The notes under the pieces: generated by a model
What the model was told of the DNA's origin: nothing
Seen by the model: only the letters and a program-made list of their open reading frames with translations
Database searches by the model: none
Assembly (NCBI GenBank): GCA_001819495.1
Contig: MHMW01000021.1
Location: forward strand, 10,706-74,705
Direction: 5' to 3'
From: Candidatus Portnoybacteria bacterium RBG_19FT_COMBO_36_7
Lineage (GTDB): Bacteria; Patescibacteriota; Minisyncoccia; Portnoybacterales; GWB1-42-6
Length of the DNA: 64,000 bases
Shown here: piece by piece, positions 6,887-48,958 of the stretch
How the letters are laid out: each line of letters begins with the position of its first letter
Numbering within the stretch: the first letter of the stretch is position 1
Translations under genes and position numbers: made by a program

Positions 6887-8332
6887 ATGGATAATCTAAA
6901 ATCAATCTTTCAAGAAAAGAACAGAGCCCTGATTTTTGCCGTTATAGGCCTTTTTTTGATATTTTTTATCGCTTTGCAGGCCCCGACTGATCCTGATTTT
7001 GGCTGGCATTTGCACAATGGGAGCGAAATAATAAAAAATCGCGCCATCGCTCATTTTGACCAGGATTCGTTTACCATGAACGATTATCCATGGATCTGCT
7101 TCTCATGGATATCCGATATATTCATAGTGTTATTACAAAAATTGTTCGGGCTTTTCGGACTATCAATGTTTTTTTCGATAATAGCGGGAACGGCTTTTTT
7201 CTTGGCAGCCCGAGCTTTTAAATCGGAAGTTGTCTATCAGGTAATAATAGCGATGTTTGGCACAATCTTGAGCGTTTCAACTTTGGGCGTAAGAGATCAA
7301 ATGTGGGGTATTCTTGGTTTAGCTGTGCTGATATACATTCTAATTCGGTGGCGCGACAACCCTCAAAACAAAATAATCTGGTATCTTCCTTTATTATTCG
7401 CGGTCTGGACTAATCTGCACGCTGGCATTATTGTGGGAATAGGTACTATGTTATTGTTTTTTTTAATAGAATCCTGGAAGAAAAAAACTGTGTCGAAAAA
7501 TTTGATCCTGGTCTTTTTTTTGTCAATCCTGGCCACCTTCGTTAACCCTTACGGCCCGCGGATGTATCAAGAAACATGGATGACGCTGATAGATTTTTCC
7601 GGCCGTTTTCAATTGATAGAATGGCGGCCTTTATTTTTTGCCGGCCGGGATATCCTTCTGCCGGCTTTTATTTATGCTGCCTGTCTGCTGGTCGCACAGT
7701 TTTACATCAAAAAGCGTGATCTGACATTAATAATTATATCTGCCTTGTTTTTTGCTTTCGCGTTGGCTGCCTGGCGGAATCTGCCGCTTTTTTTTATTGT
7801 CAGTTCACCCCTAGCCGTTATGACGCTCAAAGACCTTATTGGCAAAAATCTATTAGATTTGATAAAAATGCCGGCAATTTTATTGACATTTTTTATCCTG
7901 ACATTCTATATTGGCTGGCAAGATATAAAATCAGTCTGGGCGATAGACACCGATCAGAAGCTCTTAGCCCAAGAAGCTGATTTCCCCTATTATGCCGTAG
8001 CATTTATTCGCGATAAAATGCCTAAAGCTGAAAGCTACCGACTTTTTAATGAGTATAACTGGGGCGGCTATATCCTTTGGCAAATACCGGATCAAAAAGT
8101 CTTTATTGACGGGAAAATGCCCCATTGGAAATTGCCCGACAGAAATATTTTTGCTGATTATTTAACTTTTCAGCAAGCACAAAATTTAAGCGATTTGGCT
8201 TTGTTGATTAAAAAATACGATTTAAATTTTGCTTTGATTCGCCGCAATTCTCCTATTGTCTTTAAGCTTTCCTTTTTTGGCTGGCATAATATCTATGAGG
8301 ACGATATGGCTATAATCCTAAAAAGGCCGTAG
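6887..8332 (+). CDS. Large polytopic membrane protein, possibly a GT-C-type (ArnT/PMT/YfhO-like) glycosyltransferase. The track ORF start at 6740 is rejected because it overlaps the tRNA-Leu
   Basis: At least 12 predicted TM helices, with a periplasmic-loop aromatic-rich segment and a C-terminal soluble domain. Neighbour of a GT2 polyprenol-phosphate glycosyltransferase. Confidence 0.35.
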   Translation: MDNLKSIFQEKNRALIFAVIGLFLIFFIALQAPTDPDFGWHLHNGSEIIKNRAIAHFDQDSFTMNDYPWICFSWISDIFIVLLQKLFGLFGLSMFFSIIAGTAFFLAARAFKSEVVYQVIIAMFGTILSVSTLGVRDQMWGILGLAVLIYILIRWRDNPQNKIIWYLPLLFAVWTNLHAGIIVGIGTMLLFFLIESWKKKTVSKNLILVFFLSILATFVNPYGPRMYQETWMTLIDFSGRFQLIEWRPLFFAGRDILLPAFIYAACLLVAQFYIKKRDLTLIIISALFFAFALAAWRNLPLFFIVSSPLAVMTLKDLIGKNLLDLIKMPAILLTFFILTFYIGWQDIKSVWAIDTDQKLLAQEADFPYYAVAFIRDKMPKAESYRLFNEYNWGGYILWQIPDQKVFIDGKMPHWKLPDRNIFADYLTFQQAQNLSDLALLIKKYDLNFALIRRNSPIVFKLSFFGWHNIYEDDMAIILKRP

Positions 8333-9195: not shown

Positions 9196-9662
9196 ATAAT
9201 CTCTTTAAGCTGTCTCGGAGAGGGCTTTTTGGTTTACCTTTGTTAAATCCCGCAAAGCGGGAGCTGCAAAGCAGCTATTTAACAGGGTGACTACTCTCGT
9301 CAACCGACATTTTAGGTCTTGCCTGACCCACTCCGACCCAAGGTCGGAGCAATCGACACTACTTCCTCTTATATTAAAAAATATAAGAAAGGAGGTGATC
9401 CATCCACAGCTTCCGCTACGGATGCCTTGTTACGACTTCGTCCCTGTCACCGAGCCTACCTTGAAACCAATAAATTGGCGCTTCCGGTATTCCCGGCTTC
9501 CTTGACGTGACGGGCGGTGAGTACAAGACTTGAGAACGTATTCACCGCGCCATGGCTGATGCGCGATTACTAGCGATTCCGGCTTCATGAGGTCGGGTTG
9601 CAGACCTCAATCCGAACTGGGACCGGCTTTGATGGGATTAGCTCCATGTTACCATTTCGCTT

Positions 9663-9693
<31 letters not shown>

Positions 9694-10332
9694 AGCCCAG
9701 GTCATCAAAGGATCACGCTGATTTGACGTCATCCCCGCCTTCCTCCCCATTGTCTGAGGCAGTCTGCTGCGACACTTGTAACGCAGCATAAGGGTTGCGC
9801 TCGTTTCCTCACTTAAGAGAACAGCTCACGCCACGAGCTGACGACAACCGTGCAATACCTGACCCATCTGTCCTTGTGAGACATCGGCTGTTTCCAGCAG
9901 ACTTCAGATGGATGTCTAGACCTGGTAAGGTTCCTCGCTTGTCGTCGAATTGAACCACATGCTCCACCGCTTGTGCAAGTCCCCGTCTATTTCTTTGAGT
10001 TTTAGCCTTGCGGCCGTACTTCCCAGGCGGCAAACTTAACGCGTTAGCTTCGCCACCTGAAGGGTCGATACTTCAAATGGCTAGTTTGCATAGTTTAGGG
10101 CGTGGACTACAAGGGTATCTAATCCTTTTTGCTCCCCACGCTTTCGTCTCTCAGGGTCAGAGTAGCGCTAGCTGAATGCCTTCGCTTTTGGTGTTCCCTA
10201 CGATATCAACGGATTTCACCCCTACACCGTAGGTTCCATCAGCCTCTCGCACTCTCTAGTTTTGACGTTTCTTGCGCGGCGTTGGAGTTGAGCCCCAACA
10301 TTTAACACAAGACTATCAAAACCCCCTACAGA

Positions 10333-10363
<31 letters not shown>

Positions 10364-10454
10364 TGGGGTACTCGTCTTACCGCTCCTGCTGGCACGAGTT
10401 TAGGAACCCCTTATTCTTAGGGTACGCTCATTACGCTCCTCGCTTTCGCTCGTC

Positions 10455-10600
10455 GCTCAAATTAAAATTTTAAAGTTAAAAGTGTGAAATCATTGTATCG
10501 CTACGCAATGATTTATATATAATCATCCCGCGAAGCGGGGCACCTTAATTTTTAACTTTTCATTTTCCATTTTTAACTTAGCTCCGAACGTAAGTGAGGA
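10455..10600 (-). repeat. Insertion (~150 nt) in the V3 hairpin of 16S, built from the genome-wide AT-rich repeat family (aaagttaaaa / aatttttaac arms) around a GC palindrome
   Basis: Flanking 16S sequence aligns to E. coli ~430-500. The inserted segment is caaattaaaattttaaagttaaaagtgtgaaatc - core with cccgcgaagcgggg - ccttaatttttaacttttcattttccatttttaactt. The arms are inverted repeats. Confidence 0.5.
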
Positions 10601-10989
10601 GCGCATTGCTCCCCTATAAAAGAGTTTTACACCCCGAAGGGCTTCTTCACTCACGCGGCGTCGCTCGATCACGCTTTCGCGCATTGTCGAAGATTCTCGA
10701 CTGCAGCCTCCCGTAGGAGTCCGGACAGTTTCTCAGTTCCGATGTTGGGGGCCGACCTCTCAGTCCCCCTACCCGTCATCGCCTTGGTGGGCCGTTACCT
10801 CACCAACTAGCTGATAGGACGCAGGCCTCTCCTGAAGCAACCCTTGCGGGTCTTTAAATGAGAATGACATAAGTCCCCTCATTACTATCTTGTATTAGTC
10901 CCGATTTCTCGGGATTATTCAAAACTTCAGGGTAAGTTACCTACGCGTTACTAACCCGTTTGCCACTACCGCTCGTGCTTCGCTATCGC

Positions 10990-11045
10990 TCATCACTCGC
11001 TCAAATTAAAAGTTTAAATTTTCATTTTTAATTTTTAACTTAAGT
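10990..11045 (-). repeat. Insertion (~55 nt) in the V1 hairpin of 16S from the same AT-rich repeat family
   Basis: caaattaaaagtttaaattttcatttttaatttttaactt lies between CAAGTCGAACG...GCACAAAC and the GAGCGGTAGTGGCAAACGGGT region. Confidence 0.4.
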
Positions 11046-11726
11046 TTGTGCTGAACATAGTGAAGCACAAACGATCGTTCGACTTGCATGCCCGTATCCA
11101 CGCCGCCAGCGTTCATCCTGAGCTAGAATCAAACTCTCATTGTAAATGTTAGAACTAAAATTGCTGAATCGATCTTCGACCGTCCCACAAAATGCGGGGC
11201 AGTAAAGCGACTCAACACCTCTAGAATCCAACAAGTTTTTTCGAGACAACTTAAAAAGATTATCTCATCTCGCCGAAGCTCCGAATGGAGCATAGGCGGA
11301 TTAGCTCAAAAAAAATCTGGTTTATCCCGTTACATCCGCCAAAAAGACGGAAGTATTTATTACATCCCTTATAGTAGGATGCAATGGGATTTATTTAACC
11401 TTACTTTTTGTCTGTATTTTGTTGTTAAAGTTCAATCAAGTTTATCCATTTATACCCTCTTTCGCCCTGCAGGCTACGGACGGGTTATTCTCTTACGAGA
11501 ATAAAAAATACAACTAGTCAGACCTCTTAACTAATATTTAATTAAGAACCCCTCAAGTTGTATTTTCTAACTAACAAACTGATAACTGACAAACTGATTT
11601 TTTTTAATGGGTTCTTCTACATAGGCGTATTTTTCCTTTCCGCCCCGCAACTGCAGGGCTCTATGCAATGTCTATTTTACTCCTCTCAGTTAGCTTGTCA
11701 AGTGCTTAAATTTTACTTATCAAAAA

Positions 11727-13919: not shown

Positions 13920-13985
13920 ACATCCGAATTACTCTAATTTTATTCGTGTCATTCGGGTGTCAATTCGTGTCATTCGTGTCGCTAT
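13920..13985. repeat. Tandem decamer repeats (cattcgtgtc / cattcgggtg) with a catccgaatta motif, immediately upstream of the glutaredoxin gene. The same family occurs at 53125-53225
   Basis: catccgaattactctaattttattcgtgtcattcgggtgtcaattcgtgtcattcgtgtcgc. Confidence 0.5.
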
Positions 13986-14935
13986 TATCTATTCTTTAAA
14001 TAATTGTATGCAGAAAGGGCGGATTTTGCGCCTTCGCCAGCGGAAATTATTATCTGTTTTTCCAATATATCCGTCACGTCACCGGCCGCAAAGATCCCCG
14101 GCACGGATGTAACACAACTATTATGATCAACGATAATCTCTCCTTTCTCGTTACATCTGAGCAATCCCTTAACAAACGAAGACGCGGGCGTTGAACCGAT
14201 TTCAACGAAAATTCCGTTGACCTCTATCTGTTTTTCTTCTTTGGACCTGAAATTCCGATAAACAAGAGCTGTGACGAATTTATCTCCCAGTATTTTAATC
14301 AGCTCTACCTCTGATAAAGTTTGAACTTTCGGCTCTTTTTTTAATTTTTCCTGCAGATTTTTATCATCACCTCTTAGCTCATTATACCGATTTAAAAGAT
14401 AAATTTTTGAAGCGTATTTCGTCAACTGCCAGACAGTATCCTGCCCGGAATCTCCCGCTCCAATTACTGCCACTATTTTATCACGAAAAAGAGGCGCATC
14501 ACAAGTTGCACAATAAGTGATGCCTTTACCCTCAAATTCTTTAGTACCAGGCACTTCTAATTTTCGTTCGGCACGGCCGGTCGCGATAATAATTGACTTT
14601 GTTATATAAATTCTTCTGTCTGAACAGACCTCAAATTCTCCGCTGTCTGGCGCCATTTTTATGTTTTTTACTTCTTCTCCTTCTTTTATTTCCAAATCAA
14701 AAATTCCCTGGCCTGAGTTTTTTTCAAATTTTTTTAAATGCTCGGCAAATTTTTTGGTCAAATCAGCTCCCATAAGGCCGGGCACGCCCAGATAATTTTC
14801 AATTTGATAACCTTCCATCATCTGGCCGCCCAAGATTTTGGCAACAAGCAAAGTTTTTATCTTTTTGCGGGCTGCATAAATGGCTGCTGACATCGCGCCC
14901 GGCCCGCCGCCGATAATGATTAATTCGTAATTCAT
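13985..14935 (-). CDS. trxB: Thioredoxin-disulfide reductase
   Basis: IIIGGGPGAMSAAIYAARK (FAD GxGxxG), CATCDAPLF (redox-active CxxC), VIGAGDSGQD (NADPH site), GIFAAGDV. Confidence 0.85.
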   Translation of the reverse strand: MNYELIIIGGGPGAMSAAIYAARKKIKTLLVAKILGGQMMEGYQIENYLGVPGLMGADLTKKFAEHLKKFEKNSGQGIFDLEIKEGEEVKNIKMAPDSGEFEVCSDRRIYITKSIIIATGRAERKLEVPGTKEFEGKGITYCATCDAPLFRDKIVAVIGAGDSGQDTVWQLTKYASKIYLLNRYNELRGDDKNLQEKLKKEPKVQTLSEVELIKILGDKFVTALVYRNFRSKEEKQIEVNGIFVEIGSTPASSFVKGLLRCNEKGEIIVDHNSCVTSVPGIFAAGDVTDILEKQIIISAGEGAKSALSAYNYLKNR

Positions 14936-15975
14936 AATAGAAAATCTTTTATCTGTTTTTTTATATTGCATCCTATGATTTTACAGCTTTTTTGGCATTT
15001 TTGCAATCTTTTTCTTTCCAAGCCTGCCTTCTCTCCTTGCCACACCTCTCGAACGCTAGAATTTGAAATATTGCCTAAAACATTGCTCCGGAAGCATAAG
15101 GCGACATCACCGTTTGGCCAAACGACCAGATTATTATAAGGCGCAAGACATTGCCTTTTTTTAAATGAATCAGGGTCAAGATAATATTGATAAATCAATT
15201 TTAAATAAAATGGCGGATTTTTTATAATTTTTGACCTTTGTTCGGTCAGTGGCTTCAGATATTTTATAACCTGATCTTTTTCCGGCCACAGATCGCTTTT
15301 GGTTTGCCAATTATTTTTATAATCGGCATCGATATTAAAATCAAGCGGCTGGAAGATCAAATCAAGTCCCTTTAATGAGGCGTAGCTAATAATTTCATCA
15401 ATTTCTTTGATGTTTTGCCTAGTCAGAAGCATCCCTATTTCTACGCGCGTACCTTTGCCCTGCCGCAATTCATTTAGACAATCAAGCGCCTGCTTGGTTT
15501 TTTCAAAAGTTCCTGCCAAGCCTCTTAATTCATCGTGAACCAACGGATTCAAACTATACAAAGAAATTTTGACGCTTTTTAAATTCCATTTTAATAATTC
15601 TTGCGTCGCATCCCTGTCAATCATCGTTCCGTTAGTGTTTAAGCTAACAGGTAAATTAAGCTGATTACATTTTTCTATTATTTTAAAAACTAATTCTTTT
15701 TTCAGAAGCGGCTCTCCGCCATTTATCTCTATTTCCTGTGCGCCAAGCCAGTTTTTTATATCTTCAAGCGCCCGAAGCCATTTTTCATCTTCCAGTTCCC
15801 GGCCTGAATCTTCGTTTTTCCAGATATCGCAATGGCGGCATCTTAAGTTGCATTTTTTTGTAATAACTAAACTGACATACCGCGGCCGGCTAAAAGATGT
15901 GCCAAAACCCGAGTCCGATGCATTTGTTAAATATCTGATTGCTGATTTTAATTTCATGCTATTTTTCTCCTTCAA
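14932..15975 (-). CDS. Radical SAM enzyme with a C-terminal SPASM/twitch-like cysteine cluster
   Basis: VITKKCNLRCRHCDIW (CX3CX2C) ... GGEPLL ... C-terminal C..17..C, CQKSCKIIGC. It overlaps the upstream hypA-like gene by 17 nt and trxB by 4 nt. Confidence 0.7.
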   Translation of the reverse strand: MKEKNSMKLKSAIRYLTNASDSGFGTSFSRPRYVSLVITKKCNLRCRHCDIWKNEDSGRELEDEKWLRALEDIKNWLGAQEIEINGGEPLLKKELVFKIIEKCNQLNLPVSLNTNGTMIDRDATQELLKWNLKSVKISLYSLNPLVHDELRGLAGTFEKTKQALDCLNELRQGKGTRVEIGMLLTRQNIKEIDEIISYASLKGLDLIFQPLDFNIDADYKNNWQTKSDLWPEKDQVIKYLKPLTEQRSKIIKNPPFYLKLIYQYYLDPDSFKKRQCLAPYNNLVVWPNGDVALCFRSNVLGNISNSSVREVWQGEKAGLERKRLQKCQKSCKIIGCNIKKQIKDFLL

Positions 15976-16202: not shown

Positions 16203-17474
16203 TTAGTGTGTAGCGCAGGTCAGACAGGGGTCATAGGCCCGAATAAGCATTTTTATCAGGTCTTCACATTCTTCCTTGCATAAAGCTTTACCCCCATTGG
16301 TCAGCTGCGGAAGATAAGAAATCATATCCTCTTCCAGGCGCGCCAGGTTCTGGGCGGTCGGAGTAATAATATTGACGTTTTTTATCAAACCGTCTTCGCC
16401 GACCTCATAGTAATAAAAAAGTGTGCCGCGCGGCGCCTCTATCGCGCCAAAACCTTTACCAGCCTTGGGCTCAAAAGGATGGGACTGGACTGATTCAAAA
16501 TCAATATCTCGGGCTTTTTCCAAAAACAGTTGGGTTTCTTCCACGCAATCAACCATTTCAATCGCCTGGGCCAGAATGTTATAAAAAGGATTACCAATCG
16601 GCAGGATTAAATCCGTTTCCCGAAACAAGGATTTGGCCTTGGGGTTTAAATACTTTGCATTCAGATTCAGCCTAGCCAGAGCCCCTACCATAAATGGCTT
16701 TCCTTTAAATTCGGAACGTTTTGCCGCCGGATTTTCTTTAACCTGAAATTCCTGGATTTGAGGCATAAATTCACCAACCGGTTCTGTTTCTTTCTGCCTC
16801 TTGACCAAGCCATCATAAATCGCGTATTCGTCCGGCAGGCTCAAAGCGACAAAATCACACTCCCTATTAAATAAAGGATATTTAAGCGAACTGAAAAATT
16901 TTGCCAAAGAAACAGCGGAAGCCAAAGCCTTAACGCTCGCTTTTTCAATTTCTTTCAATTTTTCTTTGTCTGGCGCTTTTGTGAATCCGCCGACAATCGG
17001 CGTTAAAGGATGAATGCTTCTGCCGCCGATGATCTCAATTGTCTTGTTGCCAAAATCTCGCAGGACCAGCGCGTCGGCCGCCCGGCCCGGATATTTTTTT
17101 ATCAGCGCCAGATCATTTTTAATCCCGAAAAAATCGGAAAGTGAAAAGAAAAAAAGGTGCAAGGCATGACTGTTTAAAATCTGCCCCATCATCATCAGCC
17201 GCCTGAGCAAAATCGTCTGCTCGGAAGGAAAAATACCCAAAGCCGCTTCCAGTGCCTTTAAACTCGTCAAATTATGGACCACCGGACAGACCCCGCAGAT
17301 GCGGGAAGTGATTTGGGAAACTTCGTTATGGCTGCGGCCTTGTAAAATTCCTTCCAGCAACCTGGCTCCTTCATATAAATTCAGCCTGGCTTTGACAACA
17401 TTACCGTCAACTATATCGGCGACAAATCCGGCATGCCCCTCAATTTTTGCGATATGGTCTATTTTAATCTTCAT
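16203..17474 (-). CDS. [NiFe]-hydrogenase large (alpha) subunit, short group-3b/sulfhydrogenase type
   Basis: N-terminal RICGVCPVVH (L1 motif) and C-terminal DPCLTCATH (L2 motif). 423 aa. Confidence 0.85.
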   Translation of the reverse strand: MKIKIDHIAKIEGHAGFVADIVDGNVVKARLNLYEGARLLEGILQGRSHNEVSQITSRICGVCPVVHNLTSLKALEAALGIFPSEQTILLRRLMMMGQILNSHALHLFFFSLSDFFGIKNDLALIKKYPGRAADALVLRDFGNKTIEIIGGRSIHPLTPIVGGFTKAPDKEKLKEIEKASVKALASAVSLAKFFSSLKYPLFNRECDFVALSLPDEYAIYDGLVKRQKETEPVGEFMPQIQEFQVKENPAAKRSEFKGKPFMVGALARLNLNAKYLNPKAKSLFRETDLILPIGNPFYNILAQAIEMVDCVEETQLFLEKARDIDFESVQSHPFEPKAGKGFGAIEAPRGTLFYYYEVGEDGLIKNVNIITPTAQNLARLEEDMISYLPQLTNGGKALCKEECEDLIKMLIRAYDPCLTCATH

Positions 17475-18259
17475 TTTTTTATAATTTTATTTTTTGGTAT
17501 TACCGGTGGCGACGGGTACATATCGTCCAGCATACCAAATCTCTGCATAATCAAATCTATTTCCTGCTGCGAAAATCCGTAAACTTCTTTTAATTTATTA
17601 TTGAAATTATTGATGGCAGCGCCCTTAAGCGGGCCTCGGCAGCCGTCGCACGGATACGCAGAAGAAGGGCAGGGCGCGCCGCAGCCGCCCAAAATCATGG
17701 GCCCGAGGCATGGCTCGCCTTTTTGCAGAAGACATTCGTTTCGTTTCAGTTGGCATTCATAGCAGACCGGCCTTTGCGGAATTTTTGGAATAACGCCGGC
17801 TATCAACTCCTTTGCCGCCCACAAAAATTCTTCTTTGTTGATGGGACAGCCCGGAATTTCCAAATCCACTTTAACGTAATATCTGACCGGCCTGATATCC
17901 GGATTGGCAATGCCTTCAAAGTTTTTATAAACATAGCGCAGGCGCTGTTCTTTGTTCTGGTAATTTTTAAGCTCGGCGATACCGCCCAAACAAGCACAGG
18001 CACCAATCGTTACAAGAAGCTTCGTTCGCGCGCGCAGATCCTTGACCCTGGCCACATTCTGAGAGGTAATCGGTGTTCCTTCGACAAAAACCACATCGTA
18101 ATTTTCCGGCTCTGCCCGATCTTCTATCAGCGCAAAATCACCTATTTTTATCTTTTCGGTCAGCTCCAGCAATCTCTCTCCCAAATCTAAAATCGCCACC
18201 TGGCAGCCTTCGCAGCAGGTCAAAGAAACAATCGCGATACTCGGCTTTTTGTTAGACAT
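17471..18259 (-). CDS. [NiFe]-hydrogenase small (delta) subunit with C-terminal Fe-S cysteine clusters
   Basis: IAIVSLTCCEGCQVAILD ... GACACLGG ... CYECQLKRNECLLQKGEPCLGP..GGCGAPCPSSAYPCDGC. Confidence 0.75.
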   Translation of the reverse strand: MSNKKPSIAIVSLTCCEGCQVAILDLGERLLELTEKIKIGDFALIEDRAEPENYDVVFVEGTPITSQNVARVKDLRARTKLLVTIGACACLGGIAELKNYQNKEQRLRYVYKNFEGIANPDIRPVRYYVKVDLEIPGCPINKEEFLWAAKELIAGVIPKIPQRPVCYECQLKRNECLLQKGEPCLGPMILGGCGAPCPSSAYPCDGCRGPLKGAAINNFNNKLKEVYGFSQQEIDLIMQRFGMLDDMYPSPPVIPKNKIIKK

Positions 18260-19034
18260 ATAAGGAATCTAAACTATTTTTTGTGTACTTATACAGATTC
18301 GTGATGTTCTCTTCGTTTAAAATCTGAATGGCATAATTCCAATGAAACGAAATCCAATCCCCCACTTCAACATTTGGCAACATTGTTTTATCCCAATTAA
18401 TTTCTTTTTCTTTCATGCTTCCAAACTTTATTTTCTTTCTCCCGATTAATGGGTTATATTCAACAATAATTTTTAACTTTTCATTTTTAAATTTTAACTT
18501 TTTAACCCTCCCCCAGCCAACCCGGCAGATATCTTTTAGATCCGTCCTGCCTGCAAAATCAATGCTGCCGGTTACCGCCCCCAGAACCAGAACATGAAAA
18601 CTGTGGTGCGGTTTGGAAGAAACTGGAATTGCATCAGATTTTTCTTTCGCGGCTTTTCTTGATAATAAACCGGGGCCAGAAAATCTTTTAACAATCAATT
18701 CGCGCAAATCATTAAAAGTTACCTTTTCCAATAACTCATTGCCGAGCCAATAAGCTTCAATTACTTTTTTGTTCAAAGACCCTGTTTTAATTCTGTTTTT
18801 CTTGGCAATCAATTCGTAATAAGGATAGGCTGCCTGAAATCTTTTTAGGGCCGGGATTATATCGGGTATGCCCAATTTCCCCCTGATAAATTCTCTTAAG
18901 TTTTTCTGGTCTTCCGACAGCCCGCAAAGACCCATCTCATTTGGAATCAAGCCATATAGCGCCGCGATTTTAGGCCCTGACATTGATTTTTTCTCCCAGC
19001 AGTTTAATTTTTTCCAATATAAAACGGTACCCAA
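18252..19034 (-). CDS. Hypothetical protein with a C-terminal HypC/HupF-like domain. The alternative start MSGPKIAALYG at 18983 gives a shorter overlap with the upstream gene
   Basis: C-terminal DICRVGWGRV...VGDWISFHWNYAIQIL resembles HypC MC(L/I)(A/G)(I/V)PG...VGDWVLVHVGFAI. The N-terminal ~185 aa have no recognisable family. An in-frame AT-rich repeat insertion (KKLKFKNEKLK) is at 18440-18500. Confidence 0.4.
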   Translation of the reverse strand: MGTVLYWKKLNCWEKKSMSGPKIAALYGLIPNEMGLCGLSEDQKNLREFIRGKLGIPDIIPALKRFQAAYPYYELIAKKNRIKTGSLNKKVIEAYWLGNELLEKVTFNDLRELIVKRFSGPGLLSRKAAKEKSDAIPVSSKPHHSFHVLVLGAVTGSIDFAGRTDLKDICRVGWGRVKKLKFKNEKLKIIVEYNPLIGRKKIKFGSMKEKEINWDKTMLPNVEVGDWISFHWNYAIQILNEENITNLYKYTKNSLDSLYV

Positions 19035-19881
19035 GAATCATTATCAGACCTCCGGTTATCAGGCCGCTTGAAACAATCTCGCCAAAATTTATTTTTCCCG
19101 TTGAAGCGAATGCCAGCAAAGTGGTAATGGGAGATCCTAAAAGCAGAATTGCGGCTGCTGTAGAAACAGGAATATGCCTCAAACCGCTGTACCATGTTAT
19201 GACATAACCGAACAAGATAAAAGAAGCAATCTGGATCCAGAAAACCTGTTCAAAGTTAAGCTGGCTGATTATCGTCAATTGTCCGCTACCGGCCAGAAAA
19301 ATCAAAATCAGAATGGCGCCAAAAAACATTCTGCCCCAGGCAACGATCTTGGGTGACAGGCCTGCCAGCGCGTATTTTGATATAACGCTTTCAACCGCCC
19401 AAAGCAATGTGGCCAAAAATACATAAAAATCGCCGCGGTTAAAAGACAAATGAAGCGCTTTTAGGGCAATCAGATTTCCTGCCAATATCATCAGAGCTCC
19501 AATCAGCATTTCTTTTCTTATTTTTTCGCGCAAAAATATCGAGGCCAAAATCATAGTGTATATAAACATCGTTTTGTGGATAAAAGAACCTTGAGCGGCT
19601 GAGGTAATGGATAAACCTTTGAAAAATAACAAGAATGCGGCGCCGCCGCCCACAAATCCGATTACCAAAAGCATCAGCCACTGCTTTTTTGTCAGCTTGG
19701 CCAGCTGGCGCCATTCTTTGGCCAGCAGCACAAATCCGCTAAAAGCCAAAGCGACCATCACATTTTTTAAAAAAGCAAATAAGTACGGATTGACTCCGCC
19801 AACACCGTATTTGTTGATAAAAATCGAAAATCCCGAAATAATGGCGGTGATAAAAACTAATAATAATCCTTTTTTATTCAT
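18970..19881 (-). CDS. EamA/DMT-family 10-TM transporter
   Basis: Two duplicated 5-TM EamA-like halves. Confidence 0.7.
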   Translation of the reverse strand: MNKKGLLLVFITAIISGFSIFINKYGVGGVNPYLFAFLKNVMVALAFSGFVLLAKEWRQLAKLTKKQWLMLLVIGFVGGGAAFLLFFKGLSITSAAQGSFIHKTMFIYTMILASIFLREKIRKEMLIGALMILAGNLIALKALHLSFNRGDFYVFLATLLWAVESVISKYALAGLSPKIVAWGRMFFGAILILIFLAGSGQLTIISQLNFEQVFWIQIASFILFGYVITWYSGLRHIPVSTAAAILLLGSPITTLLAFASTGKINFGEIVSSGLITGGLIMILGYRFILEKIKLLGEKINVRA

Positions 19882-19990
19882 ACCAGGTAGTGAAAATTCG
19901 ACTTGTTATTGATAGATTATCAATAGCTTAGTCTTTTAATAAAATTACAGATGCCATATAGTAAAATCCGCATTATTTTTTATCCTGCTT
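19873..19990. repeat. Miniature inverted-repeat element, family B. The 21-bp terminal inverted repeats GCCAGGTAGTGAAAATTCGAC / GTCGAATTTCTACTACCTGGC enclose a core with the palindrome ttgatagattatcaa
   Basis: accaggtagtgaaaattcgac ... ggtcgaatttctactacctggc. Other copies are at 32903-32992, 47968-48045 and 48128-48192. Confidence 0.55.
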
Positions 19991-20231
19991 CGCGGGACGG
20001 TCGAATTTCTACTACCTGGCATGTTTTTTTCTTCGCACTTTTAAATAATTTATTAATTTCTTGCGCCTGTTTTTTGCTGATCTTCTGCACTATCACATTA
20101 TTTTGGGTCAGAACCCAGTCGCCTTTTTTGACAGAAATTATGGCGCCGACCTCCTGCGGCCCTTTTTGCGATTTCACCGTCGCAACGCCTTTTTTTAATC
20201 CGATAACTTGTTTTGGAATTGTCAGACACAT
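19980..20231 (-). CDS. hypC: Hydrogenase assembly chaperone HypC/HupF
   Basis: MCLTIPKQVIGL ... GDWVLTQNNVIVQKI; about 83 aa. Confidence 0.7.
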   Translation of the reverse strand: MCLTIPKQVIGLKKGVATVKSQKGPQEVGAIISVKKGDWVLTQNNVIVQKISKKQAQEINKLFKSAKKKTCQVVEIRPSREAG

Positions 20232-20249
20232 ATTCACTGTCGTTCAATT

Positions 20250-20321: not shown

Positions 20322-21185
20322 TTAAATTGCTCCCTGCACATTTTTTATCTGGTCATATCTGAACACCGGGCCCTGCTTGCAAACATAATGGCTTCCTATC
20401 CCGCAATGCTGGCAGACTCCGACTCCGCAGTGCATCCGCCGTTCAAACGAAAGATAAATATCTTCGTCAGCAAATCCGTATTTTTTCAATTTCTCCAAAA
20501 CGGCTTTATACATCACCGGCGGCCCACAGACAAATGCTCTGGCATCGGCAACAACAGAAACAACCTCAAATAACTTTGTAACCAAGCCAACGCACCCCTT
20601 CCAGTCTTCACAAACTTTATCTATGCTTAATTGAAGATTGACGCCGTCTTTCTGCCAAGATTCGTATTCATTGCGAAATAACATTTCCGAAGGATGCTTG
20701 GCGCCGTAAAATATCTGAATCTTGGCGTCTTTACCTAAAAATTCATTCTTGCCCAAAATCAAAGTCCTTAAAGGTATTAAGCCCAGTCCCCCGACAACTA
20801 TTAATAAATTCTTTTTTTCTTCATTTTTAACTTTAAACTTTGAACTTTGAACTTGAGCGCCAGCAATGGGCCAGCCGATGCCAAAAGGTCCTCTGATGCC
20901 GATTTTATCCCCCACTTTCAAAATATGCATTCTATTGGTCAGTTTCCCTATCGCTCTTATGCAAAGTTCTAAATTTTTTCCTGGCTTGTTGCAGGGCGCA
21001 AAGGGCGCTTCGCCAAACCCAGGCAAAGACAGCATAATGAATTGGCCTGGATAAATTCTGGCATCTTCATCAAATCTTAATTGAAAATGCATCTTGTCAA
21101 AGCCCAATTCAAACAGTTTGATGCCCGGCACATGGTCGGAAATCTTCAGAATTTTTGCCGTTTTGGTCTCGTAAAGATTAAACAT
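20322..21185 (-). CDS. Hydrogenase gamma subunit / AsrB-like FAD-NAD(P)-binding oxidoreductase with a C-terminal [2Fe-2S] cluster
   Basis: FNR-like fold motifs (GPFG, LLIVVGGLGLIPL) and C-terminal RRMHCGVGVCQHCGIG. It carries an in-frame repeat insertion QVQSSKFKVKNEEKK at 20815-20850. Confidence 0.75.
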   Translation of the reverse strand: MFNLYETKTAKILKISDHVPGIKLFELGFDKMHFQLRFDEDARIYPGQFIMLSLPGFGEAPFAPCNKPGKNLELCIRAIGKLTNRMHILKVGDKIGIRGPFGIGWPIAGAQVQSSKFKVKNEEKKNLLIVVGGLGLIPLRTLILGKNEFLGKDAKIQIFYGAKHPSEMLFRNEYESWQKDGVNLQLSIDKVCEDWKGCVGLVTKLFEVVSVVADARAFVCGPPVMYKAVLEKLKKYGFADEDIYLSFERRMHCGVGVCQHCGIGSHYVCKQGPVFRYDQIKNVQGAI

Positions 21186-21195
21186 ATATCCTCCA

Positions 21196-21224
21196 TTGAC
21201 AAATTAAAATAATAGTTTTAATAT
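21196..21224 (+). promoter_or_regulatory. Sigma-70-like promoter for the plus-strand zinc-ribbon gene
   Basis: ttgaca - 17 nt - taatat/tataat, followed by the RBS aaaaggagggtaag. Confidence 0.4.
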
Positions 21225-21251
21225 AATAAAAACGAATAAAAGGAGGGTAAG

Positions 21252-21386
21252 ATGGAAAAGGAGTACTGTGTGAAATGCGGAAAAGAAACACCATACACAA
21301 AGGACGTTCCTATCGACCAAAGAGATTGCTATATTGAAGGAGCTGGTCAGCTCTGTGACGACTGTTTTATCGAGATTTACGGCTAA
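21252..21386 (+). CDS. 44-aa zinc-ribbon protein (CxxC...C..CxxC) on the strand opposite to the hydrogenase operon. It is absent from the supplied ORF track (<60 aa)
   Basis: MEKEYCVKCGKETPYTKDVPIDQRDCYIEGAGQLCDDCFIEIYG*. Strong RBS 8 nt upstream, own promoter and a downstream hairpin terminator. Confidence 0.45.
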   Translation: MEKEYCVKCGKETPYTKDVPIDQRDCYIEGAGQLCDDCFIEIYG

Positions 21387-21389
21387 TAC

Positions 21390-21425
21390 CATCAGCGTTA
21401 TGCGCTATTTTAAAATAAAATAGCG
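21390..21425. terminator. Hairpin terminator (bidirectional) between the hydB 3' end and the zinc-ribbon gene
   Basis: ttatgcgctattttaaaataaaatagcgcattttatttt. Confidence 0.5.
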
Positions 21426-21447
21426 CATTTTATTTTAACAAATGATC

Positions 21448-22485
21448 TTAAGAATTTTCTATGTTTTTTAAAACTTCCGCAATATCAATACCCACAGGGC
21501 AAACGGCCGCACAGCGGCCGCATCCCACGCATCCCATAAAATTGAATTCTTCCGGAATCCTGGCGAATTTATGATAATACCAGAAATGAATCCGCTTGGC
21601 GGTGTCGTTCAGAAACTTATGCCCCAAGGCCACTTCGGAAAATTCCTGATAAAAGCAGGAGTCCCAGCAGCGCTGGCGCTCGCCCTCGCTATTTTCCAGT
21701 CCGGCTTTATCGTCAATCCGAAAACAAAAACAGGTCGGGCAGACTATTGTGCATTTGCCGCATTCAATGCATCGAGCCCCCAGCTCGTCCCAGATTTTTT
21801 GATTGTGCTTATTTTTCAGCTTATCCTGAATCTTTATCATCCGTTCGTCCAGTTTGCCTTCCTTGACCGGCCCGCTGAATTGAATATTAATATAGTCTTT
21901 ATAGCCAAAGTCATTTAAGATTTTTTGCCCAAGCAGGGAGCCGGTAAAAACTGCGTATTCGCCGTTATCCTTTTCTTCATTTATCAGTTTTGCTTTTTTT
22001 GTTCTTATGGCCGGCACCTTGGCAAAACTCATCTCGGCCAAAAAAATATCAAAGCTTAAATGCTCCAAAATATCCTCTTCCAGCGTCATCTCAAAGATAT
22101 TCTGGGACATGTCGGGGATGAGGCTATGGCCGACAATGAGCAGATTGCGTCTCCGCGCCTGATAATAGGGGTCTTTTTCAAAAACCTGGTCATAAAGCAA
22201 AACAGATTTCAAATCCAATAAATTCATGCCTAAAATCGCCGTTTTTTTTGGAGCCAATTCTTCAGCTTTTAAGATATGCCCTTTATATTCAAAAAGTTTT
22301 TCTTTTTCCGGGATAAAAAAGCGCTTAAAGGAATAAAAAGGCACGCCTTTCTCCAGCTTCAAATCTGCGGGGTATTTCAAGTGGTCAACTTCCAGCAGAT
22401 TTTCGCGCTTTTGTGTGCCAAAAACATCCCATCCGTTTTTTTGAAGGAATAAAATAAAATCTTCCAACTTATGTCTGGTTAGCAT
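21448..22485 (-). CDS. Hydrogenase beta subunit / AsrA-like iron-sulfur protein
   Basis: C-terminal CIECGKCTIVCPTCFC and CVGCGRCAAVCPVGID (2x 4Fe-4S ferredoxin motifs). About 345 aa, like sulfhydrogenase HydB. Confidence 0.75.
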   Translation of the reverse strand: MLTRHKLEDFILFLQKNGWDVFGTQKRENLLEVDHLKYPADLKLEKGVPFYSFKRFFIPEKEKLFEYKGHILKAEELAPKKTAILGMNLLDLKSVLLYDQVFEKDPYYQARRRNLLIVGHSLIPDMSQNIFEMTLEEDILEHLSFDIFLAEMSFAKVPAIRTKKAKLINEEKDNGEYAVFTGSLLGQKILNDFGYKDYINIQFSGPVKEGKLDERMIKIQDKLKNKHNQKIWDELGARCIECGKCTIVCPTCFCFRIDDKAGLENSEGERQRCWDSCFYQEFSEVALGHKFLNDTAKRIHFWYYHKFARIPEEFNFMGCVGCGRCAAVCPVGIDIAEVLKNIENS

Positions 22486-22685: not shown

Positions 22686-23582
22686 TTAACGAGGGACTGA
22701 CCACCTATAATTTGGCCTCTTGGTCGGATAAGACTTTGAAGGATACCGAGAAGTCTTATGCCTGTACTGAGACCGAGGTTGGCTATGATTATAGCTATAA
22801 CTTCTACTATAACCGTAGTTTCTATACTTAGAATAACTTCTGTACTCGTAATATCCGCCGTTGATAATTATCGGCGGAGGCAAGGGTATGGAACCCCACC
22901 AAGAACGTTGCCCTGGTGGAACTTGTACCGTGACTTCAACGGGCACTTCCACCGGGACCTCCACCAGAACCTCTTTTTCTACAATTTGAGTCTGTGGAGG
23001 CGGAGCCGGCCTAACAGCTGGCGGCTGAAAAGCTTGTGGCTGAAGGGGTTGTGTCTCAGAAACAACTTCATTTTTCCGAGGAATCCCGTTACCGCACTTC
23101 TTTATAATGGTAATCCAGAATTCCTCTTCATTATAAGGAAACTTGACCTCTAACGCTTCTAAGGTCTGTTTCCCTAACCACTCAACCGGCCTGCTGTCAT
23201 AAAACACTCCCTTTCTGGGTTTGAAAAACATCCCATCAGGGAATATTGCCCCCGGTTGATAAGATGACTGCGTTACATCGGAACATTCCACAGCCATTTG
23301 GAAGACAACAAATAATTCTTCCGCATCGTACTCCGGGTAGGCTTGCTCGAGTGCCCTTACGAAATCCTCCTGAATTCCAGGATCACCCAATTTATTTATT
23401 AGGTCATCCTGATTCCTGACTCCCCCTTTAATCATGGGTGCACCGCCTAACTTCGTCCATTTAAATGTCGGAGTACCGGCGTAAGCGTGAGACAGAAAGG
23501 GAGTCACTGCCAACAAAAACAAAATAAAGAATAAAACCAACACAATTAATCCCCAGATAAACATTTTCTTGTTCTTTTCCAT
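22686..23582 (-). CDS. N-terminally anchored extracytoplasmic protein with a Pro-rich linker and a Tyr/Ser/Arg-rich low-complexity C-terminal tail
   Basis: TM helix IWGLIVLVLFFILFLLAV, globular domain, PQAFQPPAVRPAPPPQTQ, (EVPV)3, then YYEYRSYSKYRNYGYSRSYSYNHSQPRSQYRHKTSRYPSKSYP. Confidence 0.5.
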   Translation of the reverse strand: MEKNKKMFIWGLIVLVLFFILFLLAVTPFLSHAYAGTPTFKWTKLGGAPMIKGGVRNQDDLINKLGDPGIQEDFVRALEQAYPEYDAEELFVVFQMAVECSDVTQSSYQPGAIFPDGMFFKPRKGVFYDSRPVEWLGKQTLEALEVKFPYNEEEFWITIIKKCGNGIPRKNEVVSETQPLQPQAFQPPAVRPAPPPQTQIVEKEVLVEVPVEVPVEVTVQVPPGQRSWWGSIPLPPPIIINGGYYEYRSYSKYRNYGYSRSYSYNHSQPRSQYRHKTSRYPSKSYPTKRPNYRWSVPR

Positions 23583-23774
23583 ATTTCCCTCCTTTGATAG
23601 TTTTTTGTTTTTTTTAAAAGAACCTTTTTTCTCGTAAATCTGCCGATTTCAGAATTTAGCATTATATATTAATTCTATAATTTTGTCAAGTGATTATGCT
23701 AGTCGGCGCGCAAATCAAAAAAGAGCCCATTTGGGACTCTTTTTTAAAATTTACGGAAGCGATTAAAATACAGC

Positions 23775-46059: not shown

Positions 46060-46131
46060 GCGCCCGTAGCTCAGTGGTAGAGCACGACTCTTATAAAGTC
46101 GGGGTCCTTGGTCCGATCCCAAGCGGGCGCA
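46060..46131 (+). tRNA. tRNA-Ile (anticodon TAT as encoded). An unusual UAU isoacceptor if unmodified
   Basis: GCGCCCG-TA-GCTC-AGTGGTA-GAGC-A-CGACT-CTTATAA-AGTCG-GGGTC-CTTGG-TCCGATC-CCAAG-CGGGCGC-A; 72 nt. Confidence 0.55.
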
Positions 46132-46201
46132 CTAAAATAGCCTAAAGCATATGGCTTATAGCACATAATCCGCTAAAAGCTATCTGCCAAAAGCTATTAT
46201 C

Positions 46202-46278
46202 GGGCGGTTAGCTCAGCTGGCTAGAGCGTCACATTGACATTGTGAAGGTCAGTGGTTCAAGTCCACTACCGCCCACCA
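46202..46278 (+). tRNA. tRNA-Val (anticodon GAC), CCA encoded
   Basis: GGGCGGT...TCACA-TTGACAT-TGTGA...ACCGCCC-A-CCA. Confidence 0.8.
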
Positions 46279-46279
46279 A

Positions 46280-47068
46280 ATGAAGTCAAAAAAATCGGCC
46301 ATTTTTATTTTATTGCTTTTTACCGCCCTCGTTTTGGCGGGTGTTTTTTATTGGTCCTTCATAAAGACTCAGGACAAGCTAAATAATCTGCCGAATGAAT
46401 CAGCCCAAAATTATTCCAATCTGCCAAATACAGAGAAAGAGATTTCAACCTCCACTCCCCCGTTTGTAATCAAAGACGAAATTTCGCGCGGCAATCCCGC
46501 TAAAAAACAGATTATTTTTACTTTTGACGCCGGCGCCGGATCAAATTCTTTGCAAAAAATTCTTGAAGTGACCAAAGCACATAATTTAAAATTAACTTTT
46601 TTTAGTACCGGGAAATTTGCCCAGAAGTATCCAGATTTAATAAAACAAATTGCCGCGGAAGATCACGAAATTTTCAATCACACGTATTCTCATCCGCATT
46701 TGACCCAAATAACGGACGAACAAATAAAAGAAGAACTTGATAAAACGGAACAAATTATCATCGGCCTGACCGGCCAAACCACCAAACCATATTTCCGTCC
46801 TCCATATGGCGACCGCAATTCTTATGTGCTTGAATTAGCCAAAGAGGAAGGCTACCAATCTGTCTATTGGACCATCGATGCATGGGATTGGATGACCGAT
46901 AAAACCGAAGAACAAGTCAAAAACAGAATTTACTCAAATTTAAAAAATGGCTCAATAATCCTGATGCATATTGGTGATAATATCACGGGGAATATCCTAG
47001 AAGAAGTTTTTACAAAAATAAAAAATGACGGATACAAAATAGTCAGCTTAACCGAAGGATTAAAATGA
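46280..47068 (+). CDS. Polysaccharide deacetylase (NodB-homology, CE4) family protein, secreted
   Basis: FTFDAG, HTYSHPHL, RPPYGDRN motifs; N-terminal signal/anchor. Confidence 0.8.
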   Translation: MKSKKSAIFILLLFTALVLAGVFYWSFIKTQDKLNNLPNESAQNYSNLPNTEKEISTSTPPFVIKDEISRGNPAKKQIIFTFDAGAGSNSLQKILEVTKAHNLKLTFFSTGKFAQKYPDLIKQIAAEDHEIFNHTYSHPHLTQITDEQIKEELDKTEQIIIGLTGQTTKPYFRPPYGDRNSYVLELAKEEGYQSVYWTIDAWDWMTDKTEEQVKNRIYSNLKNGSIILMHIGDNITGNILEEVFTKIKNDGYKIVSLTEGLK

Positions 47069-47976
47069 AATTCATAGCCAAAAAAGAAAACGTTGGCCGG
47101 CGGCTCGATAAACTTATTGCCGGGTATTGGCCGCAATATTCGCGCGCCTATATTCAAAAACAGGTCAAAGGCGGCGCGGTTCTGGTCAACGGCCAGATAA
47201 AAAAATCTAGTTATTTATTGAAAGAAAACGACGAAATTGAGGCAAATATTTTACCACTTCCTGAAATTTCTCTTGAGCCTGACCAAACAATTGAACTAAA
47301 AATTATTTATGAGGACGATGACGTGATAGTGATTGATAAGCCTGCCGGTTTAATTGTTCATCCAAGCGCCACCCAGAAAAGCGGCACGCTTGTGAACGGC
47401 TTGCTCGCCCACTATCCCCTGCTCAAAGGCGTCGGAGAGGACCCAGTCAGACCAGGCATTGTCCATCGCCTTGATAAAGACACTTCTGGCCTGATGATTG
47501 TCTCTAAAAACAACGAATCGTTTGGATTCTTAAAAGACCAGTTCAAGAACAAAAAGGTTGAAAAAAAATATCTGGTTTTGGTGGCTGGCCGGCCGAAAGA
47601 ATCATCCGGCAAAATTAAAACTTTCATCAGCCGCAGCAAATCAGATCCGACCAGACAAAAAATTTCACAGCACGGAGCAAAAGAAGCAATCACTTTTTAC
47701 AAAACCATACGCGAATTTCGTAATTTTACTTTAATTGAGGCCGTTCCAAAAACCGGGCGCATGCATCAGATAAGAGTGCAGCTAGCTTGGCTGGGCAATC
47801 CAGTGACCTGCGACAATAAATACGGGCTAAAAAAGCGCGCCTGCCCCGAAGGCCTGACCAGGCAATTTCTGCACGCGGCAAAGCTGACAGTAGTCTTGCC
47901 CGACGGTCAAAAGAAATCTTTCATCAGCCATCTGCCGCCTGATCTCGATATAATATTAGCTAGCCTTGCCAGGTAG
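47065..47976 (+). CDS. RluA-family 23S rRNA pseudouridine synthase (RluD/RluC-like) with an S4 domain
   Basis: RLDKLIAG (S4), VIVIDKPAGLIVHP, HRLDKDTSGLMIV (catalytic Asp). Confidence 0.85.
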   Translation: MKFIAKKENVGRRLDKLIAGYWPQYSRAYIQKQVKGGAVLVNGQIKKSSYLLKENDEIEANILPLPEISLEPDQTIELKIIYEDDDVIVIDKPAGLIVHPSATQKSGTLVNGLLAHYPLLKGVGEDPVRPGIVHRLDKDTSGLMIVSKNNESFGFLKDQFKNKKVEKKYLVLVAGRPKESSGKIKTFISRSKSDPTRQKISQHGAKEAITFYKTIREFRNFTLIEAVPKTGRMHQIRVQLAWLGNPVTCDNKYGLKKRACPEGLTRQFLHAAKLTVVLPDGQKKSFISHLPPDLDIILASLAR

Positions 47977-48045
47977 TGAAAATTCGACATTTTTTTTGAT
48001 TTTTGATCGCCTTCGGCGATCAGTCGAATTTCTACTACCTGGCTT
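47968..48045. repeat. Family-B inverted-repeat element, copy 3 (core palindrome gatcgccttcggcgatc)
   Basis: gccaggtagtgaaaattcgac ... gtcgaatttctactacctggc. Confidence 0.55.
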
Positions 48046-48127
48046 GAAATAAAATGATATTTGTGCTAAAATTTCAAAGTTAATATAATTAAGACAGTAT
48101 TTCACCGAAAGACTGTTTTTATATACT

Positions 48128-48192
48128 TTGCCAGGTAGTGAAATTCGACTGCTGCCTGGCAACCATTTAATTTTAAATTGTCGAATTTCTAT
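48128..48192. repeat. Family-B inverted-repeat element, copy 4 (short core)
   Basis: gccaggtagtgaaattcgac tgctgcctggcaaccatttaattttaaattg tcgaatttctattacctagc. Confidence 0.5.
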
Positions 48193-48200
48193 TACCTAGC

Positions 48201-48587
48201 ATGAAAATGACAGAAGAACAACTGAAAAAAGATCTGCCGGAAATTAAGCCCGGCTATACCGTTATTGTCCACCAAAAAATTAAGGAAGGCGACAAAGAAA
48301 GAATCCAGCATTTTCAGGGACTGGTTATTGCTCAAAAACATGGCTCTGGAATAAACGCTACTTTTACCGTGCGCAAAATTTCCGCCGGCGTGGCGGTTGA
48401 ACGAATTTTCCCGCTTCATTCTCCAAACATCCAAAAAATTGAAGTAGTCAAAAAATCAAAAGTGCGGCGGGCCAAACTCTATTATCTTCGCGGCCGTTTT
48501 GGCAAACAGGCAAAGATGAAAAAGACAGAGGCGGTGGTGCCCGAAACCGTTTTGCCGGAGCAAACGCCTGACCAAACTGCTGAATAA
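48201..48587 (+). CDS. rplS: 50S ribosomal protein L19
   Basis: [34 protein letters not shown]...[21 protein letters not shown]. Confidence 0.9.
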
Positions 48588-48591
48588 AAAC

Positions 48592-48673
48592 GCGCGGGTG
48601 GCGGAATTGGTATACGCGTATGCTTGAGGTGCATATGCCGCAAGGCTTGGAGGTTCGAGTCCTCTCCCGCGCA
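48592..48673 (+). tRNA. tRNA-Leu (anticodon GAG)
   Basis: GCGCGGG...TATGC-TTGAGGT-GCATA, long variable arm, GGAGG-TTCGAGT-CCTCT, CCCGCGC-A. Confidence 0.75.
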
Positions 48674-48718
48674 CAATAGTGAGCTTGCGGCGACTCGTTT
48701 ATTCACCCCGTTAGATTA

Positions 48719-48790: not shown

Positions 48791-48850
48791 CGAGGTACCC
48801 TTATCTAACGGGGTAGGCCGCAGGCGCGCCCCGTACCGAGCTTTGCTTTG

Positions 48851-48880: not shown

Positions 48881-48958
48881 AATTCTGGCTTATAGCATAT
48901 AGCTTATGGCAAATAGCAATTTACTATTGGCTATAAGCGATTAGTGATAAGCCAAATC

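Follow-up and report, generated by a model that had tools for sequence, protein, structure and literature searches.

In the 64,000-nt stretch of Candidatus Portnoybacteria bacterium RBG_19FT_COMBO_36_7 analysed here (hereafter the window), a hydrogenase operon read from the minus strand is interrupted between hydB and hydG, its beta and gamma subunit genes, by a spacer of 262 nt (21186-21447, counted from the hydG start codon to the hydB stop codon). On its plus strand this spacer holds a small cassette of its own, made up of a promoter, a Shine-Dalgarno (SD) sequence, an open reading frame (ORF) for a 44-aa peptide and an intrinsic terminator (Table 1). An initial annotation of the window had claimed an opposite-strand small gene between the beta and gamma genes, and we found all of its elements in place, including the ribosome-binding site (AGGAGG, 5 nt 5' of the ATG) and, after the ORF, the perfect hairpin with its 13-bp stem and T-run. 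The conservation of its sequence further confirms that the ORF is a real protein-coding gene, belonging to a large family that has not been catalogued.

Between the -35 box and the hydG start codon there are 10 nt, and the box directly adjoins the SD sequence of hydG (21190-21194, minus strand). Two overlapping -10 boxes, TAATAT and TATAAT, had been proposed for a 17-nt spacer; this distance holds for TAATAT, which is likely the -10 box of the cassette, because TATAAT (21222-21227) would need a spacer of 20 nt. The 64 kb hold two perfect TTGACA-N17-TAnnAT sites where 0.16 would be expected, and none of 100 shuffled sequences reached two. The terminator hairpin folds with -15 kcal/mol (z = -3.8), which was equalled by 0 of 200 shuffles, and it is followed by a T-run on the plus strand only, the hydB strand having AACGCTGATG after the hairpin. 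Both GC and AT skews turn positive over 21100-21400, switching sign exactly over the ORF, which is consistent with plus-strand coding of the small ORF. The GC content over the insert is 0.345-0.365 (0.35-0.37), versus 0.38-0.52 in hydB and 0.39-0.48 in hydG, a small difference measured on a short insert.

Table 1. Predicted features of the hydB-hydG insert and of the surrounding hydrogenase cluster (positions refer to the window).
Feature	Position	Strand	Description
Promoter-ORF-terminator cassette	21186..21447	+ (opposite to operon)	262-nt insert
Sigma-70-type promoter	21196..21224	+	-35 TTGACA 21196-21201, 17-nt spacer, -10 TAATAT 21219-21224
Shine-Dalgarno sequence AGGAGG	21241..21246	+	5 nt upstream of ATG
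44-aa ORF, MEKEYCVKCGKETPYTKDVPIDQRDCYIEGAGQLCDDCFIEIYG	21252..21386	+	ATG at 21252; acidic Cys4 treble-clef zinc finger (predicted)
Intrinsic terminator	21400..21437	+	13-bp stem 21400-21428, ATGCGCTATTTTA/TAAAATAGCGCAT, 3-nt loop, then TTTATTTT
hydB-like beta subunit	21448..22485	-	Fer4_22 dicluster domain; best full-length match to ShyB/HydB sulfhydrogenase beta models; convergent with small gene
hydG-like gamma subunit	20322..21185	-	FAD-/NAD-binding and DHODB-type Fe-S domains; best match ShyC/HydG; divergent from small gene
hypC	19980-20237	-	downstream of hydG
Delta subunit	17471-18259	-	best NCBIfam match ShyD/HydD
Alpha subunit (hydrogenase large subunit)	16203-17474	-	best NCBIfam match ShyA/HydA

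The peptide is acidic (net charge -5, pI 4.3) and, in a database of 5.8 billion proteins, it has homologs of 65-66% identity with E = 1e-8 to 1e-11. A profile search of 1.84 billion cluster representatives (50% identity) retrieved 1,932 proteins at E <= 1e-3, 493 of them at E <= 1e-10, and an indexed search gave 3,545 clusters at 90% identity with E <= 1e-5; of these, the 120 listed were mostly unnamed or hypothetical proteins, and none of the 120 had a Pfam domain. Most members are stand-alone mini-proteins of 45-120 aa. The family, as defined by alignments made in this analysis (A2, A4), has the invariant spacing C-x2-C-x25-C-x2-C, with a Cys-to-Cys core of 33 residues in 270 of 270 members, invariant residues at C6, C9, G32, Q33, C35 and C38, and nearly invariant ones at T13, Y15, R24, Y27, E29, G30 and L34, which include the conserved block G-x-G-Q-L-C; the median core charge across the family is -2. 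The window ORF carries all the invariant residues and matches the family hidden Markov model (HMM) with E = 6.8e-23. In this sense, the earlier claim of a genuine gene with its own expression signals is well borne out, both by the conserved protein family and by signals that exceed chance. The CxxC...C...CxxC motif first described for the peptide stands for its two CxxC pairs, which are invariant, and not for the middle Cys, C26, which is not conserved in the family.

No model of Pfam, PHROG or NCBIfam was significant for the peptide or for 103 relatives, which gave sub-threshold matches to generic zinc fingers only; the best weak Pfam matches, DUF7685 and DZR_2, scored 13-15 bits against a gathering threshold of 27 bits and were matched at E <= 0.01 by 14 and 18 of the 103 members, respectively. 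Solved structures gave no match by sequence. Among the members P0005, P0006, P0009 and P0021, as well as P0066, P0102 and P0110, some have two tandem copies of the domain, and another subset shares a conserved C-terminal extension containing TPND-x-ELG-xx-VR, which indicates that the finger has been combined with other modules in some lineages.

An AlphaFold2 model of the window peptide, built with the alignment of 103 sequences, reached a mean pLDDT of 96.3. Its elements follow in the order of a strand (residues 3-5), a knuckle formed by C6-x2-C9, a beta-hairpin (strand residues 12-16) and a helix (36-43) that starts at C35-x2-C38. In a classical zinc ribbon both CxxC pairs sit on beta-hairpin knuckles of a small beta-sheet, while a treble clef runs from a zinc knuckle through a beta-hairpin to a C-terminal helix, the N-terminus of which supplies the last two ligands. 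The zinc ribbon proposed in the initial annotation therefore does not agree with the model, in which the second CxxC lies at the N-terminus of a helix and not on a beta-hairpin knuckle. The predicted fold is a treble-clef zinc finger with C6, C9, C35 and C38 as ligands, from which we infer one structural zinc ion held by four Cys; the best, though weak, structural matches of the model are all treble-clef modules. As modelled, the peptide shares its topology with treble clefs that serve as small interaction modules, namely the ClpX N-terminal zinc-binding domain, ZZ, FYVE, RING/PHD-like and eL24-type ribosomal fingers. It has no detectable sequence relationship to them, no Pfam family reaches threshold for it, and it is a stand-alone single domain with a family-specific x25 spacer and T/Y/R/Y-E-G-x-G-Q-L-C signature.

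Three known Cys4 proteins were compared and rejected as identities of the peptide. The ClpX zinc-binding domain (zf-C4_ClpX, C-x2-C-x18-C-x2-C) gave an hhalign probability of 1.3%. Rubredoxin (PF00301), which has CxxCG and CPxCG knuckles, gave no match at E <= 10 (4 members) or at E <= 0.01 (103 members), and the second pair of the peptide, CDDC, lies on a helix. For the nickel metallochaperone HypA/HybF there was no match to the Pfam or NCBIfam models, and that protein has ~110 aa and an N-terminal Ni site, versus 44 aa here.

The same junction was compared in relatives of the window. The closest genome relative (L009) is a metagenome-assembled genome of Candidatus Portnoybacteria with a HydG 73% identical, and six further metagenomic relatives have HydG proteins 72-78% identical. 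Looking for the peptide in relatives with the same operon had been suggested as a check on the gene; with the family HMM, both the family and its opposite-strand position were found to be kept in the hydB-hydG spacer of L009 (identical in L090 and L091), L088 and L093, making four independent insert-bearing lineages together with the window. In all four a perfect TTGACA, a 17-nt spacer and TAnnAT are kept on the ORF strand, with the -35 box 7-10 nt from the hydG start, and a short 5' untranslated region (UTR) contains [AG]GGAGG (AGGAGG or GGGAGG in L088, L009 and L093, where GTTCTTT also precedes the SD sequence). A hairpin followed by a T-run on the ORF strand only is present in the three of three loci that have the 3' end on the contig, with z = -3.8 in the window, -5.9 in L088 and -5.7 in L009; L093 is cut by a contig end, and the 3' end of its cassette and the hydB-side boundary fall outside. 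The hairpin sequences of these three loci are mutually unrelated and all have a T-run, which indicates that the terminating function has been preserved. As the hairpins have no T-run on the hydB strand, read-through from hydB to hydG is possible, and the search for a hydG-strand promoter inside the inserts gave weak, non-conserved matches only. One terminator arm of L088 (the 1438-1452 / 1245-1259 pair) nearly repeats, over 15 nt and with 93% identity, the LGYPKG codons inside the ORF, and so these are complementary to the other terminator arm; an alternative pairing could be read in this, or chance, and no such near-repeat was seen in L009 or the window.

The presence of the cassette is optional. 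In L089, L092 and L010 (an Elusimicrobia outgroup) the hydB-hydG junctions are insert-free, measure 57, 12 and 4 nt, respectively, and have no small ORF, which indicates that the junction was ancestrally tight. The 57-nt spacer of L089 (3944-4000) consists mostly of repeated TTCGTA-like units (tttcgtatattcgtaaattttcgtatttcgta) with no similarity to the cassette. A neighbour-joining tree of HydG and the C-terminal part of HydB yields the groups ((window, L088), L089) and (L009, L092), and since each clade mixes insert-bearing and insert-free members, at least two gains or losses must have occurred.

Alleles of the cassette have also been replaced. Between L088 and L093 the HydG N-termini are 91.5% identical and the 5' DNA of hydG is 96.3% identical, compared with 68.7% for promoter plus UTR and 43.6% for the DNA of the ORF core, which encodes proteins 31% identical (dS = 1.83). 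Faster protein evolution cannot produce such saturated synonymous divergence beside a near-identical flank, which means allele replacement by recombination, and these sequence comparisons show that the cassette has been exchanged independently of its flanks, its alleles and the neighbouring hydG having had different histories. For L088 and L009 the hydG 5' DNA is only 83% identical, yet the identity of the ORF is 69% at the DNA level and 59% at the protein level (dN/dS of 0.15); L001 and L002 are uninformative for dN/dS, being the same strain (99.3-99.6% identity). The exchange would be explained most simply by homologous recombination within hydB and hydG, the conserved flanks. A transposable element, either an insertion sequence or a miniature inverted-repeat transposable element, was considered and discarded: the loci have only 9-15-nt AT-rich matches, unshared between them, and neither terminal inverted repeats nor a target-site duplication were found.

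Members of the family are also encoded away from hydrogenases. In Candidatus Paceibacterota (several NCBI accessions) a solitary family gene with its own TTGACA/TATAAT and terminator lies among secA, scpAB, fmt, def, priA and rplI, and a chromosome resembling those of the Candidate Phyla Radiation (CPR), L097, carries beside radC a solitary member 67% identical to the window peptide. Members are encoded as well by 76 viral contigs of IMG/VR, where their neighbours are thymidylate synthase (thyA), a DnaB-like helicase, QueE and a T4-gp43-like polymerase (polB) that is only ~29% identical to any sequenced phage. A conserved partner gene was not found, as each cluster of neighbours spans at most 10 of 69 loci, within small groups of related contigs, and the downstream overlapping ORFs of L094, L003 and L007, whose translations were inspected, are mutually dissimilar. 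By tblastn with the peptide and the family consensus, no true member was found in 50,697 records of deposited phages. An unannotated 46-aa ORF of Synechococcus phage S-MbCM6 (MKMWETKCVGCGKMTPANECPQVGHQAPDGSWANSLCKPCWIKSKK; L096 2501-2641, that is, NC_019444.1 118903-119043) shares the CVxCGKxTP start and the C-x2-C-x25-C-x2-C spacing and does not have the R...Y-EGAGQ core; from these features, it may be a distant relative of the family. In L003, a phage-like contig of 57.5 kb, a long-arm-tRNA-like sequence (~7905-7990, judged by eye) lies directly 5' of the family gene.

The reading that we favour, and regard as fairly probable, is that the insert is an autonomous, monocistronic and moron-like accessory cassette, not specific to hydrogenase, that resides in a group 3b hydrogenase cluster of Portnoybacteria-like CPR bacteria. 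The initial annotation had offered a simply parked small gene as an alternative, and this is what fits best: L089 and L092 keep the operon without the cassette, and members are found at unrelated CPR sites and in phage-like contigs. The small gene would be transcribed alone and terminated ~10 nt before hydB, and its product, probably a protein-binding zinc finger, would act in trans as a small module for binding protein rather than DNA, a role proposed because the peptide is acidic. It would bind a conserved partner of the cell or of a phage and not the hydrogenase. A single old insertion would account for the constancy of the slot, and homologous recombination within the conserved hydB and hydG flanks would later have replaced alleles or removed the cassette. 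A side effect on the operon is likely: any read-through from hydB to hydG would run antisense to the small mRNA, and RNA polymerase bound at the strong promoter would also occupy the start region of hydG.

Phage morons are defined as single coding regions with a promoter on one side and a terminator on the other, placed between genes that are neighbours in related phages (PMC4378225). The cassette resembles morons in having one small coding region with its own strong promoter and intrinsic terminator, in separating two genes that are neighbours in close relatives (L089, L092, L010), in its patchy presence, in having no transposon ends or target duplications, and in belonging to a gene family common to phage-like contigs. 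Unlike phage morons, it is found in a cellular hydrogenase operon of a CPR bacterium, within a 64-kb stretch that holds a 16S rRNA gene and tRNAs, it lies on the strand opposite to the surrounding operon, its composition differs only slightly from that of the flanks, and its slot has been kept long enough for three very divergent alleles.

Several points weigh against the accessory cassette. The promoter, the terminator and translation are predictions made from the sequence and its conservation, and the metal could be iron instead of zinc. There are only four independent insert-bearing lineages and one recombination boundary was seen, as L093 ends before the hydB side, and the neighbour-joining tree carries no support values. 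Part of the IMG/VR 'viral' contigs may be misclassified cellular DNA. Lastly, that three divergent alleles are kept at exactly the hydB-hydG junction could mean selection and hence a hydrogenase-linked role.

The main rival, structurally plausible but in our view unlikely, is that the cassette regulates the hydrogenase operon locally, acting in cis, in trans or both. In the cis form, the strong promoter 7-10 nt from the hydG start, firing toward hydB, would act through promoter occupancy, collisions with polymerases coming from hydB, and duplexes of the small mRNA with the read-through RNA of the operon, so that expression of gamma-hypC-delta-alpha would be uncoupled or throttled relative to beta; in the trans form, hydG would be regulated by the zinc finger, whose gene is transcribed divergently from it. 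The distance of the -35 box from the hydG start in the four lineages, together with its contact with the hydG SD sequence in the window, argues for such a role, as do the one-directional terminators of all three visible loci, with which read-through would be antisense to the whole small mRNA, the lack of a conserved promoter on the hydG strand inside the inserts, and the three very different alleles at one junction. However, a single ancestral insertion explains the conserved geometry without selection, the close relatives L089 and L092, with 57 and 12 nt between hydB and hydG, have the same operon free of the cassette, the overwhelming majority of the family lies away from hydrogenases, and an acidic protein is atypical for a DNA-binding regulator.

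A second possibility, which we hold to be doubtful, is that the family is a phage-host conflict module with an anti-defence, host-takeover or superinfection-exclusion function, whose chromosomal copies would be domesticated forms or decoys that CPR cells retain. The hydB-hydG slot would then be a tolerated landing site, and an arms race would drive the rapid turnover of alleles. The occurrence of the family in both phage-like contigs and CPR chromosomes, its patchy presence, the discordance between the phylogeny of alleles and that of the flanks, and the moron-like architecture are all compatible with this, and so is the position of the viral-contig copies among early, replication-type genes. 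Many phage-encoded inhibitors of host proteins are small and acidic, as is this product. Against a conflict function, no match to defence or anti-defence models was found (the PADLOC library was not searched), no conserved partner gene was found, and the dN/dS of 0.15 denotes purifying selection within a subtype. In its boldest version, this family would serve CPR and other uncultivated lineages as the dedicated currency of conflicts between phage and host, in which the finger binds and neutralises or hijacks a conserved cellular machine, chromosomal copies serve as counter-measures, and the hydB-hydG junction is an allele-swapping recombination slot with an outward promoter that gates the downstream hydrogenase genes; we regard this whole picture as speculative and quite improbable.

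It is very unlikely that the peptide is an accessory or redox factor of the hydrogenase, be it an electron carrier with an Fe(Cys)4 site like that of rubredoxin, or a metallochaperone for Zn/Ni that, like HypA, serves the maturation of the [NiFe] enzyme. The four invariant Cys in two CxxC pairs, the rubredoxin-like size, the encoding within a hydrogenase cluster beside hypC and the fact that Fe and Zn are indistinguishable from sequence would suit such a function, and rubredoxin and HypA also have a four-Cys site on a small polypeptide. Yet the peptide has no match to the Pfam rubredoxin or HypA models even at E <= 10, and its predicted treble clef, with the second CxxC starting a helix, differs from the two knuckles of rubredoxin. 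Moreover, the gene is dispensable in the sister lineages L089 and L092, and the distribution of the family is unrelated to that of hydrogenases, most members being in phage-like contigs or hydrogenase-free CPR loci. Finally, that the ORF is no gene at all, being a chance ORF in an AT-rich spacer or part of a purely non-coding antisense RNA, might be argued from its length of 44 codons, but this is effectively refuted by the conservation of the family (HMM match at E = 6.8e-23, thousands of homologs with invariant Cys, Gly and Gln), and dN/dS of 0.15, a confident structure model and an SD sequence at the right distance in four lineages also speak against it.

The peptide may also be compared with other zinc-finger micro-proteins of prokaryotes, such as the small C(P)xCG proteins of haloarchaea, which are stand-alone proteins of <70 aa with two CxxC pairs, often unannotated, and with roles mostly unknown or regulatory. 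The family described here is likewise stand-alone and small and has two CxxC pairs, but it differs in motif, spacing and taxa, and it is shared with phages and concentrated in uncultivated lineages.

Our results indicate that CPR hyd1 clusters can be split by an optional transcription unit on the opposite strand. In a published analysis of the context of these clusters only same-strand families were plotted (PMC7304191), which may explain why an opposite-strand cassette went unnoticed. The pattern of presence, absence and allele swap provides natural comparison sets for the effects of nested cassettes on operon expression. Also, standard ORF lists miss genes of less than 60 aa that can nevertheless be real, abundant and strongly conserved: the window gene leads to thousands of sequences without an entry in Pfam, NCBIfam or PHROGs, and with no member in the 50,697 deposited phage genomes. 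Furthermore, the family provides a link between CPR bacteria and uncultivated phages, for whose relationship molecular markers are scarce.

Regarding the flanking genes, the alpha, delta, beta and gamma subunits all have sulfhydrogenase-type models as their best full-length NCBIfam matches, below the equivalog cut-offs in every case, as expected because CPR homologs are distant, and the Pfam domains agree; by these sequence matches, the cluster around the insert qualifies as a group 3b [NiFe] hydrogenase. Two genes interrupt the cluster on the way from hypC to the delta and alpha genes, one for an EamA-family transporter (18970-19881, minus strand) and one for a DUF6390 protein (18252-19034, minus strand). 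They overlap by ~65 nt as listed, and the DUF6390 protein has a weak HypC-like match at its C-terminus. Just downstream of the large subunit gene, with overlapping ORF ends, are genes for a radical SAM/SPASM protein (14932-15975, minus strand) and a thioredoxin-reductase-like flavoprotein (13985-14971, minus strand). The second perfect TTGACA-N17-TAnnAT site of the window (23661-23689, minus strand) is in promoter position before a gene (22686-23582, minus strand) whose product of 298 aa has an N-terminal hydrophobic segment, (EVPV)n repeats and a Tyr/Ser/Arg-rich tail, with no match in Pfam or NCBIfam.

Elsewhere in the window, a bacterial 16S rRNA gene (9388-11144, minus strand) spans 1,757 nt versus 1,533 nt of the Rfam model, which implies an insertion of ~220 nt. 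A 23S rRNA was not detected within the 64 kb, which suggests that the rRNA genes are unlinked; both the insertion in the 16S rRNA gene and unlinked rRNA genes are typical of CPR bacteria. Within a cluster of tRNA genes (46060-49233), a tRNA-Ile with the anticodon UAU (46060-46132, plus strand) represents an uncommon bacterial way of reading AUA.

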